Numbered from the stretch's first letter, positions 2-5,204 are shown. The stretch is DNA of 32,000 nucleotides from Promethearchaeota archaeon (GCA_030606485.1 JAUWGH010000005.1:180001-212000), one strand, 5' to 3'. The notes: generated from the letters alone by a model not told the origin. Program-made: numbers and translations.

Positions 2-1600
2 AGGACTGAAGCAGAATTACTTTTAAAAGTTCAAGAACATATGTTATCTCCTCGTTTTGGTGGACCAATAATAGGTGGAATTCAGGATTTTATATCTACT
101 GTTTATCAATTTACAAGTAAGGACTCTGTTTATAATATTAAGGATACTTTAAAATTATTATATTTAGGTAGAATATTTGACACAAATCCAGATTTTTCAA
201 TAAATGATTTAACACCAGTAATAACTGATCCAGAACCAAAATATTCTGGAAAGTCAATTTTTAGTGCATTATTTCCAAAAGACTTAAATTTACGGCAAAG
301 ATCAAAGTTTTGCAAGAAATGTGACGTATGTAAAGAGTATGATTGTGAATTTGATGCATATGTTCATATTGAAAACGGGAATTTGTTAACTGGAACTATT
401 GATGAAGCAACTTTTGGAGCAATGAAACCAAATAGTATTTTACACCGAATAATAAAAGATAATGGAAATGAAAGAGGGAGAGTGTTTTTGGATAATTCGA
501 TACAAATGCTCCTTCATGTAATCAGAATGAATGGGATTACTATTGGTCTAGATGAAGTTTTTGTAAAAGGTGATGCAATGGAAGAAATCATAAATGCTCT
601 AGATAAAGCAAATATAGAATGTGAAGAACTCATAAAAGCATACCATAATAAAGATGACACTATTTTATCTCGAGCCCCAGGAAGAACTTTAAAAGAAACT
701 TTGGAATTAAGAATTAGAGGGATATTAAACGATGCAAGAAAGAAAGCTGAAACGATTGCCTCCATTGATATTGGAGATCAAGCCCATTCGGTTATAATGA
801 CAAAGTCTGGAGCGCGAGGTAATCCTCTAAATCTTGGTCAAATGGCTGCAGTGGTTGGGCAACAAGCAATTCGGGGAGAAAGAATACATCGAGGTTATAT
901 GAAGAGAACATTACCTCACTATAAGATTAATGATCTCTCTGCTAAAGCAAGAGGATTTGTTTCCTCATCATATCGAAAAGGTTTAAATCCTGAAGAGTTT
1001 TTCTTCCATTCAATGGGTGGTAGAGAGGGACTTGTTGATACTGCTGTTAGAACCAGTCAGAGTGGATATATGCAAAGAAGGTTAGTTAATGCATTACAAG
1101 ATGTAATTGTTGAAAATGATAATACTGTAAGAGATGCTAATAAGAGTATTGTTCAATTTCAATTTGGCGATGATGGAATTGACCCCTCTAAGAGCGACCA
1201 TGGTTTAGCAATAAACCTTGATCTTTTAATATTAAAAGCCAAAGCGTTAAAATCTATCAAGAAAATACCAATTATTAAAACTTCGGTGAAAAAAGCACCA
1301 GTGAAAAAAGCACCAGTGAAAAAAGCACCAGTGAAAAAAGCACCAGTGAAAAAAGCACCAGTGAAAAAAGCATCAGTGAAAAAAGTTCCAGTAAAAAAAG
1401 CATCAGTGAAAAAAGTTCCAGTAAAAAAAACAAAAAAAAAAATTCTAAAGCAACCAACGAAAAAAGATAAAAAAAGTCCTGATGAAGAATCTATAATCCA
1501 AGAATTTGAAAATGAAACGGGGAAAAAGGCAATCTGGCGTGGAAAACAAACAAAACAATTTAATGAATGGAAAAAAGAAAAATATGGAGTTAAAAAATAA
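2..1600 (+). CDS. rpoA1: DNA-directed RNA polymerase subunit A' (Rpo1N), 5'-truncated by window edge, with long basic C-terminal extension
   Basis: Frame is open from base 2 (RTEAELLLKVQEHMLSPRFGGPIIGGIQD). Motifs SGARGN, FFFHSMGGREGLVDTAVRTSQSGYMQRRL (bridge helix) and QFGDDGIDP are present. Followed by rpoA2. Confidence 0.98.
   Translation, partial: RTEAELLLKVQEHMLSPRFGGPIIGGIQDFISTVYQFTSKDSVYNIKDTLKLLYLGRIFDTNPDFSINDLTPVITDPEPKYSGKSIFSALFPKDLNLRQRSKFCKKCDVCKEYDCEFDAYVHIENGNLLTGTIDEATFGAMKPNSILHRIIKDNGNERGRVFLDNSIQMLLHVIRMNGITIGLDEVFVKGDAMEEIINALDKANIECEELIKAYHNKDDTILSRAPGRTLKETLELRIRGILNDARKKAETIASIDIGDQAHSVIMTKSGARGNPLNLGQMAAVVGQQAIRGERIHRGYMKRTLPHYKINDLSAKARGFVSSSYRKGLNPEEFFFHSMGGREGLVDTAVRTSQSGYMQRRLVNALQDVIVENDNTVRDANKSIVQFQFGDDGIDPSKSDHGLAINLDLLILKAKALKSIKKIPIIKTSVKKAPVKKAPVKKAPVKKAPVKKAPVKKASVKKVPVKKASVKKVPVKKTKKKILKQPTKKDKKSPDEESIIQEFENETGKKAIWRGKQTKQFNEWKKEKYGVKK
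1286..1435 (+). repeat. 15-bp coding tandem repeat (GTGAAAAAAGCACCA) encoding VKKAP-type pentapeptides
   Basis: Five perfect units at 1286-1360, then four variants (VKKAS/VKKVP alternating) and one degenerate unit (VKKTK). Confidence 0.97.
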
Positions 1601-3363: not shown

Positions 3364-3825
3364 ATGCATAGAAAAGCTGTTAAAATTGATGAGGAATCTA
3401 TAAAGTTAATTTCTCTATTTAATAATTTAACTGGTGCTGTTGTTAAAGATTGCATTGTGGTCCCTGGAAAAATGGGAGTACGAGATAAGGTCATATTTCT
3501 TGTATTAAAAGAAGATGTAGGAAAAGCAATTGGTAGAAATGGAGAGAATGTTAAAGTTTTAAAGGAAAAACTACAGAAAACTATAGATATAATTGGATTT
3601 TCCGAAGATATTAAAGAATTTATTCAAAATATTCTTAATACAAGTAAAGTCCGTAATGTTGAAATTAGAGAAAATATCAGCGGAAAAAAAACTATAATAA
3701 TTACAGTTAACCCTGAAGATAAGGGGAAAGCCATCGGAAAGAATGGAATAATGATAAAGAAAACTAAACTCCTCGTACTACGACATTTTAATGTTGATAA
3801 TTGTATTATCAACACGAAAAATTAA
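3364..3825 (+). CDS. nusA: Archaeal NusA-like transcription factor (two KH domains)
   Basis: GKAIGRNGENV and GKAIGKNG KH motifs; canonical position after L30e. Confidence 0.95.
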   Translation: MHRKAVKIDEESIKLISLFNNLTGAVVKDCIVVPGKMGVRDKVIFLVLKEDVGKAIGRNGENVKVLKEKLQKTIDIIGFSEDIKEFIQNILNTSKVRNVEIRENISGKKTIIITVNPEDKGKAIGKNGIMIKKTKLLVLRHFNVDNCIINTKN

Positions 3826-3966: not shown

Positions 3967-4398
3967 CTAGCGCATAGATTTTTCTCGCTTTCCAGATACT
4001 AAAGCTTCTAAACTTACTCCGTTAACCTTTGTTACTTTCCACCTAACACCAGGTAAATCACCTACTGCCCTTCCCTTTGCACCACCTATGCCCTCTACCA
4101 ATACAGTGTCATGCTCCTGGATGAAGTTAAGCGCACCATCACCCGGAAGAAAACAAGTTATAGTTTTGCCGTTTTTTCTTAATTGGACTCTAAGACATTT
4201 ACGTATTGCACTGTTAGGTTGTTTACTCTCTCTGCCCACCTTCTCAAGCACTATTGCTTCAGCGGCTGGAGCTCCTTGTAATGGATCTGCTTTTTGTTTT
4301 AATTTAAGTTTTTTTCTTTTATATTTTGTCTTACTCCATCTAAATTTTTTCCTATTTCGTTTTAGTGCTTTGGCACTATATAGACCCTTAGGCGGCAT
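3967..4398 (-). CDS. rps12: 30S ribosomal protein S12 (uS12/S23e)
   Basis: [21 protein letters not shown] and [10 protein letters not shown] motifs. Confidence 0.98.
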
Positions 4399-4586: not shown

Positions 4587-5204
4587 ATGAGCAAAACAAA
4601 GAAAAAACCTACAATAAAATTTTTTAATAAATGGGATTTCGATATTGAAATTCATGATTATAGCTTAGAGAGATACATTAATTTAAAGCCAATTATAATA
4701 CCAGATTCTCAAGGTCGCCATACGCACAAAAGATTTTGGAAATCTAATATATCTATTGCAGAACGTTTAATTAATAAACTTCAATCTCCGGGTTATATAA
4801 GTGGAAAAGTAAAGGGCCATAAAAGCTCTTATAATTCAGGTAAAAAAAGTAAACTAATTAAATTGGTTGAGACTGCATTTTCATTAATTGAGTTAAAAAC
4901 TGGTATGAATCCCTTGCAAGTGTTAATTAATGCAATTGAAAATGTTGCCCCTAGAGAGGAAACTACAAAAATAGCAATGGGTGGTATTTCATATGCAAGT
5001 GCTGTTGATATTGCTCCGCAACGTCGAGTAGACCTTGCATTAAAATTACTTGTTCATGCTATGGTTAATATTACTCATGATAATATAATTACAATTGAAG
5101 AAGCCATCGCCCAGGAATTAATAGCGGCTTCAAAAAAAAGTCAAAATTCTAAAGCAATTAAAAGAAAGGACGAAATTGAAAGAATTGCCATTTCTGCTCG
5201 ATAG
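4587..5204 (+). CDS. rps7: 30S ribosomal protein S7 (uS7)
   Basis: NPLQVLINAIENVAPREETT, AVDIAPQRRVDLAL and KDEIERIAISAR motifs. Confidence 0.98.
   Translation: MSKTKKKPTIKFFNKWDFDIEIHDYSLERYINLKPIIIPDSQGRHTHKRFWKSNISIAERLINKLQSPGYISGKVKGHKSSYNSGKKSKLIKLVETAFSLIELKTGMNPLQVLINAIENVAPREETTKIAMGGISYASAVDIAPQRRVDLALKLLVHAMVNITHDNIITIEEAIAQELIAASKKSQNSKAIKRKDEIERIAISAR

Follow-up and report, generated by a model that had tools for sequence, protein, structure and literature searches.

A conserved terminal module behind a variable, predicted disordered linker on RNA polymerase subunit A' in Promethearchaeales

The tail of A' and its repeat array

The gene analysed here raises the question of what a long, repeat-bearing tail does at the end of a catalytic subunit of RNA polymerase (RNAP), and which part of that tail matters to the cell. 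The archaeal enzymes are generally seen as counterparts of Pol II that lack a tail. The window, by which we mean the whole stretch of 32,000 nucleotides that was analysed (G000:C5:180001-212000), belongs to a 3.75-Mb Promethearchaeota genome of 13 contigs and 29% GC. The initial annotation had noticed that subunit A' runs on past its normal end into lysine-rich repeats and a small Trp-containing module, and had read the repeats as a tail like that of histone H1. The features concerned are the following.

2-1600, + strand: rpoA1 (RNAP subunit A'/Rpo1N), 3' part, from the ORF, Pfam and alignment to solved A' chains
1064-1249, + strand: last conserved A' core, from the bridge helix to the terminal helix (..LILKAKAL), the canonical A' end
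1250-1483, + strand: cationic linker of 78 aa, predicted to be disordered (AF2 and composition)
1286-1435, + strand: 15-bp tandem repeat encoding ten VKKxP-type pentapeptides (TRF, unit listing and congener comparison)
1423-1442, + strand: A8-C-A10 homopolymer tract in the coding frame (TRF, period 1)
1484-1591, + strand: conserved 36-aa terminal module (alignment A1 and AF2)
1598-1600, + strand: rpoA1 stop codon TAA
1628-2863, + strand: rpoA2 (A''/Rpo1C), Pfam Rpb1_5 positions 66-265, E 3e-56

The full rpoA1 ORF encodes 961 aa from the first ATG (L081), and its product matches Pfam Rpb1_3, Rpb1_4 and positions 1-67 of Rpb1_5 (E 7e-35, 5e-26 and 2e-29). This is the make-up of an archaeal A' (Rpo1N), with Rpb1 domains 3, 4 and the N-terminal part of 5, the rest being encoded by the separate A'' gene, which has an SD-like AGAGGT of its own upstream. 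The core encoded at 1064-1249 has a mean pairwise identity of 75% among 51 relatives. Three solved archaeal A' chains (4qiw_A, 906 aa; 8cro_A, 910 aa; 2pmz_A, 880 aa) align to about nt 1240 and stop within about nine residues past the residue encoded there, and the approximately 116 residues encoded by 1250-1597 are therefore an appendage. The extra residues first noticed are thus real, in frame and repeat-bearing, and the terminal peptide quoted for them is present in the ORF. We also agree that they sit at the end of A' and not at the end equivalent to the CTD, as they follow Rpb1_5 position 67 and the alignment of yeast Rpb1 to A', over residues 814-876, stops at 876. The point of departure of the tail from RNAP is thus the A'/A'' split; in yeast numbering this lies just beyond residue 876 of Rpb1, which we take to be the position where the eukaryotic foot domain is inserted.

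The linker has 41% K/R and 3% D/E (net charge +30), and in an AF2 prediction of the 178-aa C-terminal piece residues 69-137 have a pLDDT below 50 and no secondary structure. Its ten VKKAP-type pentapeptides were recovered both by TRF, which reports a 15-bp repeat at 1286-1429 (9.6 copies, 89% matches), and by a listing of the units. Five identical 15-mers (VKKAP) occupy 1286-1360 in the assembly and are followed by two copies of a 30-bp VKKAS+VKKVP pair at 1361-1420, the order that had been described for them; the tenth unit is degenerate (VKKTK) and runs into the A8-C-A10 tract. In congener G003, whose A' core is 97% identical, we found one AP, one AS and one VP unit, which indicates that the array gained 60 + 30 bp in the present genome and bears out the proposed recent origin by slippage. 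Congeners have three or four units or degenerate ones, two further congeners carrying degenerate versions. By these comparisons, the VKKAP array is a recent expansion private to this genome and an example of a repeat tail that evolves by slippage on an RNAP.

The A8-C-A10 tract lies inside the coding frame. After a +1 or -1 slip there, both shifted frames meet a stop within 2-9 codons, so that the product would be an A' with a Lys tail and without the module; in G003, the A-run is interrupted at this place.

Read-level data, by which the initial annotation was to stand or fall, uphold the array in part. Logan contigs from three metagenomic DNA runs, each of a different study of cold seeps or marine sediment, are identical to the assembly on both flanks, and Logan unitigs at 1343-1393 and 1370-1423 back the AS/VP duplication, while the run of identical units collapses at k=31 in the Logan contigs, five being the count in the assembly only; RNA-run contigs extend only to about nt 1330. 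The number of identical units could accordingly be an assembly artefact or polymorphic, with a true count other than five. We consider this somewhat unlikely: the k=31 contigs do break within the identical run, and in two runs the purely periodic unitig is covered about as deeply as the flanks (1x), which would fit about three units there (a weak, depth-based indication), but the genome, at 13 contigs and 100% completeness, is probably well assembled. Moreover, any multiple of 15 bp preserves both the frame and the module, so an error in the unit count would leave the tail intact as a finding.

A' tails compared across relatives

The comparison of rpoA1 C-termini across relatives that had been suggested at the outset yielded complete A' ends with 54 distinct tails from families f1 and f2 of Promethearchaeales. 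One architecture was found in 54 out of 54: the terminal helix, a hydrophilic low-complexity linker and the terminal module, with a repeat copy number that varies. The linker measures 39-219 aa and has a net charge of -4 to +30 (median +5.5). Pairwise identity is 0.75 in the core, 0.27 in the linker, where 33% of the positions are gapped, and 0.56 in the module, where no indels occur. The linker of the window is the most basic of the 54, and within its genus the net charge ranges from +11 to +30. Several lineages have linker repeats of their own that are unrelated to these, and others have none. The cultured Promethearchaeum syntrophicum MK-D1 (G038) has an A' with a Lys/Thr-rich linker and one module, and Ca. 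Harpocratesius repetitus (G032) has three modules on its A' tail, as is the case across its genus. In sister family f4, A' stops right after the terminal helix. The single f3 genome (G026, L038; 66% complete) has a 65-aa Lys-rich A' tail without the module, at a locus that is partly masked and whose end is uncertain. In the other orders of the class, we found a short helical A' extension, a fused A'-A'' gene or an intein, and the module in none of them.

Two observations were made alongside this comparison. The A' tail at one f2 locus (G039, L041) is strongly acidic, its end being uncertain because of masked bases. At three loci from other orders (L076, L077 and L078, from G227, G224 and G222), A' and A'' are fused into one ORF, and in two of these genomes the trigger-loop motif of the fused gene is interrupted, between GEPGTQM and TLKTFHYAG, by a large insertion that resembles an intein.

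These tails bear directly on the idea that the VKKAP/Lys-rich array is itself the functional part, an H1-like, DNA-binding or compacting and possibly acetylatable element that holds RNAP on DNA in analogy to the CTD. The composition of the linker in the window speaks for it, as the linker is Lys/Ala/Pro-rich, strongly basic and predicted to be disordered, like H1-like and Hc2 proteins (41% K/R, net +30, pLDDT <50), and is the second most cationic 60-aa window among the 3574 ORFs of at least 80 aa in this genome, well away from what chance would give. It matches HC2 and H1-like models by composition, and a homologue search with the whole tail was dominated by low-complexity K/A/P proteins of bacteria, whose sigma factors, topoisomerase I and RNase R often bear K/A/P tracts. 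We also count in its favour that the PAKKA repeats of M. smegmatis Ku modulate how this protein binds DNA (PMC3553676), and that Lokiarchaeial acetyltransferase (HAT) and sirtuin (SIR2) enzymes act on Lys-rich tails, as described in a preprint that leaves RNAP unmentioned (10.64898/2026.07.02.735847). However, every H1-like family score lies below its cut-off (PF07382 (Hc2), 22 bits against 40; NCBIfam NF038053, 25.3 against 80; NF038052, 15 against 135), the array is private to this genome with few or degenerate units in its congeners, and the 54 tails span -4 to +30 around a median of +5.5. Because the charge, the repeats and the sequence of the linker vary in this way, H1-like compaction cannot be what clade-wide selection maintains. 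We thus regard this reading as unlikely; it may describe a genus-specific add-on, not a conserved role. Of the initial annotation, the H1-like composition stands for this genome, while its conservation does not (27% linker identity), and neither does DNA compaction as a conserved function, since the linkers of relatives range from polyampholyte to +30 with different repeats or none. The VKKAP array should not be annotated as a histone-like domain.

What is conserved, judging from the alignments, is not basicity; it is the 36-aa module, which seems to be under purifying selection and which the initial annotation had underrated as a small Trp-containing cap. The conservation of the module also bears on a further explanation, namely that the tail is a tolerated, functionless appendage that grew from low-complexity sequence at a permissive chain end in an AT-rich genome. 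A GC content of 29% favours Lys codons, and the linker evolves very fast, with independent repeats in several lineages. Nevertheless, although the linkers before it vary from 39 to 219 aa, the module has stayed in frame and taken on no indels in 54 distinct tails, and one genus carries it in triplicate; a comparable charge is reached by only 15 of the genome's ORFs, rpoA1 included; and we saw neither a dN/dS near 1 in the module nor frequent loss of the module in f1 and f2. This explanation is very improbable. By eye, most of the other 14 highly cationic windows, which are unannotated, look like small basic ribosomal-type proteins.

Like the Pol II CTD, the A' tail is a repetitive disordered tail on the largest RNAP subunit with a lineage-variable repeat number, and plausibly a device for tethering or recruitment. 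Unlike the CTD, which follows the A''-homologous part behind the clamp core and linker, it leaves at the A'/A'' split; its units are VKKAP, VKKAS and VKKVP pentapeptides, with no tandem YSPTSPS-type heptads in the A' tail, and the repeat is not conserved even within the genus. The end of the tail is a module that is predicted to fold and that other proteins carry as well, which makes RNAP resemble a client and not a landing pad. The PAKKA repeats of M. smegmatis Ku, HupB and Chlamydia Hc2 share the Lys/Ala/Pro composition and the charge of the A' linker, and bacterial K/A/P tails, like the A' linker, are appended to enzymes of nucleic-acid metabolism (sigma factors, topoisomerase I, RNase R). 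This likeness is one of compositional convergence only, the basic character not being conserved among A' orthologues. A further lineage-specific basic addition to an archaeal RNAP is Rpo13 of Sulfolobales, which is reported to lie near Rpo5 and to contact double-stranded DNA (summarised in PMC13257274). In contrast to the A' tail, Rpo13 is a subunit of its own, belongs to a different phylum, occupies another site on RNAP and has no sequence similarity to the tail. RNAP tails and Lys-rich DNA-binding tails are known in kind; new are the position of this tail, the conserved mini-domain at its end and the use of that mini-domain as a clade-wide tag.

The terminal module and its host proteins

An alignment of 36 copies of the module (A1) shows an acidic amphipathic helix followed by the consensus ETGKxAIWRGKxTKxYxxWK. 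Four residues (T12, A16, T23 and W29) never change and K14 and G20 hardly do, while positions 19 and 21 vary (R/H/Q/N and K/S/N/R/I/V/A, respectively). The tail in the window has the features by which A1 defines this new 'TGK-W' terminal module. AF2 predicts for the module alone a helix (2-12), a beta-hairpin (17-22) and a second helix (24-34) with a pLDDT of 88, and the same fold at a pLDDT of 86-91 when the module is part of the 178-aa C-terminus. Basic residues make up the conserved polar positions, which fall in loops and at a helix N-terminus, and the net charge of the module in this window is nearly neutral (about +1). A complex prediction with two copies, run without controls, gave no support for a homodimer.

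We found nothing significant for the module in Pfam, NCBIfam or PDB sequence profiles, the PDB giving only short chance matches. Foldseek against the PDB gave no match at E <= 0.001, VIA-align against 48k chains gave a best Z of 2.9 with all hits at noise level, and the Atlas feature search gave no usable match. In the literature covered, searches for the motif of the module returned only unrelated peptides, and those on Asgard RNAP extensions and disordered tails returned nothing on the A' tail. Matches to the N-terminal hybrid-binding domain of RNase H1 (PF01693) were seen for 3 of the 36 members (best E 0.0087, not significant after 36 trials), and a profile search of PDB sequences did not find a domain of this type. 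From sequence and predicted fold, the module thus appears to be a new mini-domain with no significant structural or sequence relative.

Two known domains resemble it in part. SHOCT (PF09851) is a tiny domain found at the extreme N- or C-terminus of many unrelated proteins, including membrane-protein tails, and both are thus short and promiscuous terminal domains; the module differs from SHOCT in its predicted helix, beta-hairpin and helix, in giving no sequence match and in having been found in one archaeal order only. The C-terminal DNA-binding domains of Lsr2 and H-NS share with the module two short helices, an Arg-Gly loop and a flexible linker. An assignment to them is not supported, as 0 out of 36 members match these families at E up to 10 and the R-G-(R/K) triplet of an Lsr2- or AT-hook-like element is not conserved across the module family; the VIA-align match of the module to 6qkp (Lsr2; Z 2.4) ranks 11th among 49 rows of Z 2.0-2.9 and lies in the noise range.

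The search of Asgard proteomes with the terminal module, also suggested at the outset, found it on hundreds of proteins and, in all searches run, only in the order Promethearchaeales. Among 201 genomes sampled across the phylum, it is present in 40 out of 40 f1 and 3 out of 3 f2 genomes, with 3-24 copies each, and in 0 out of 157 genomes from 25 further families. Each of the four f4 genomes has one copy or two; the two ORFs that we inspected belong to one response-regulator family, and the remaining three hits are to ORFs that resemble these in length (295-329 aa). When 1.84 billion representatives were searched, approximately 495 clusters were obtained at E <= 1e-3, with at least one bacterial false positive. 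Among the best 150, the module is C-terminal in 71 and N-terminal in 27. Its hosts contain Rpb1, LRR, beta-helix/NosD, REC, zinc-ribbon, eL13, Ras/Roc, reverse transcriptase and Na/Pi transporter domains and, in the Atlas search, also include ABC and AAA+ ATPases, and K-rich linkers recur beside the module in hosts other than A'. Of 55 longer hosts, 14 carry the module behind their last TM segment, on the K/R-rich side, which places it in the cytoplasm in these membrane proteins. One metagenomic representative (P0021, 624 aa) has matches to a BBS7/BBS2-like beta-propeller (E 8e-16 and 2e-10) and a Lys/Glu-rich linker with the module at its C-terminus.

The only host family that we found to be common to f1, f2 and f4 is the response regulator, in which the module abuts an RHH_1 segment that scores below threshold (16-17.5 bits against 20.5). 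In G030, a 317-aa ORF (L096, G030:C11:33151-34077, minus strand) consists of an eL13 core and two linker+module units; the eL13 of the genome under study (C1:213821-214051) is without the module. The other carriers in this genome are only two tandem response regulators and a 248-aa zinc-ribbon protein with two modules, which, being bivalent, might partner the RNAP tail or compete with it. The latter (L002 868-1614, minus strand, on G000:C12) has an acidic middle part and a C-terminal CxxC...CxxC zinc ribbon, belongs to no Pfam family and is conserved in the genus.

Stand-alone genes of 44-46 aa that encode little more than the module occur in f1 genomes, and the module thus appears to be autonomous. 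At L088 (G179:C4:54200-55700), the interval from the end of rpoA1 to the beginning of rpoA2 holds a 46-aa module gene, in which HCG replaces WRG. A short metagenome contig of low coverage (L082 1-839, 839 bp) has a 99-aa ORF of Lys-rich linker and module directly before rpoA2. An SD-like AAGGTGA precedes this ORF, and the frames upstream of it are closed within the 48 nt available; the tail may have split naturally from A' here. Two other candidates for a free-standing tail gene were rejected, L083 as a frameshift or gene-calling artefact and L086 as a chimeric contig, its GC content jumping from 58% to 33%, while L084 is kept as a candidate only. The neighbours of stand-alone module genes are inconsistent, with a RecA-fold neighbour in two out of four. 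At L091 2470-3475 (minus strand) and L095 601-1575 (plus strand), from two genera, a 44-aa module gene directly follows a 250-aa RecA/RadB-like gene with an SSGDSxLDELL motif and a degenerate Walker A (GDKKKT). Overall, the module looks like a lineage-specific, promiscuous terminal tag, small enough to be easily synthesised and with natural 44-aa stand-alone versions.

A putative tether with a docking module

We propose that the A' tail is a disordered tether with an autonomous docking module that leaves RNAP at the A'/A'' split and docks to a ligand shared with other proteins, a reading that we hold to be probable. Its first part would be an intrinsically disordered, fast-evolving hydrophilic spacer, which in this genome seems to have acquired the VKKAP array and its exceptional positive charge through two recent slippage events. 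The second would be the 36-aa helix-hairpin-helix module, predicted to fold autonomously. Selection that keeps a spacer of any sequence together with an intact module points to a tether with a docking end, and the occurrence of the module on many unrelated and often membrane-anchored proteins suggests that RNAP is one client of a shared cytoplasmic ligand. Most likely, then, the flexible tail tethers RNAP to a cytoplasmic ligand common to all module-bearing proteins, and its conservation suggests that mature A' retains it. Two whole families of Promethearchaeales, the cultured P. syntrophicum MK-D1 among them, would thus carry a conserved tether and a putative docking module on their catalytic subunit, and the tail is directly testable in that organism.

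As to the ligand, we favour a polyanion, namely a nucleic-acid backbone, which would be contacted by the loops that hold the conserved TGK and RGK/T residues, together with the N-terminal end of helix 2. Four observations point in this direction: the response regulator of f1, f2 and f4 has the module directly before its sub-threshold RHH_1 segment, two modules are attached to the eL13 of G030, the module has Lys-rich linkers next to it time and again, and the conserved polar residues are basic and located in loops and at a helix N-terminus. In this genus, the Lys-rich spacer (+11 to +30) would add non-specific electrostatic affinity for nucleic acid. On the other hand, the module is nearly neutral and its R19 and K21 vary, which disfavours an AT-hook-like insertion into a groove, and the linkers of many relatives have a net charge of about zero. 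Membrane-protein tails, GTPases, LRR proteins and the BBS-like propeller would also fit a protein hub or a membrane target better than a polyanion.

The same hosts would suit a module that acts as a protein-protein adaptor, similar to a dockerin or a zip code, for one receptor or scaffold, with RNAP as one client that is positioned in the cell; candidate scaffolds are the cytoskeleton, a membrane-associated hub, a chaperone or the degradation machinery. This is possible, if on balance doubtful. The hosts are extremely diverse and range from LRR proteins, Ras/Roc GTPases and the propeller to single-pass membrane proteins with the module on a cytoplasmic tail, the module is mostly terminal and on long linkers, and proteins with several modules could serve as multivalent scaffolds; but no receptor candidate was found, with the neighbours of stand-alone genes being inconsistent (RecA-fold in two out of four). 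A further reading, which we think decidedly unlikely, is that the module is a clade-wide cellular 'address code'. Modules on flexible tethers would in that case bring RNAP, eL13, response regulators, small GTPases and membrane-protein tails together at one common scaffold or compartment, e.g. a condensate or a cytoskeletal or membrane-associated structure. If true, it would be a way of organising gene expression in space among the cultured relatives of the ancestor of eukaryotes, with an RNAP tail that exits at the position that presumably became the eukaryotic foot domain. For the tether with its docking module, which we continue to prefer, a ligand, if found, could reveal how these cells position transcription or couple it to DNA, ribosomes, the membrane or the cytoskeleton.

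A minor observation concerns the genes downstream of rpoA2. A minus-strand gene at 3967-4398, which by eye encodes ribosomal protein S12, is placed between nusA (3364-3825, plus strand) and the S7 gene (4587-5204, plus strand). The usual archaeal rpoA2-rpl30e-nusA-rps12-rps7 cluster is co-directional, and the arrangement in the window therefore looks like the inversion of a single gene.
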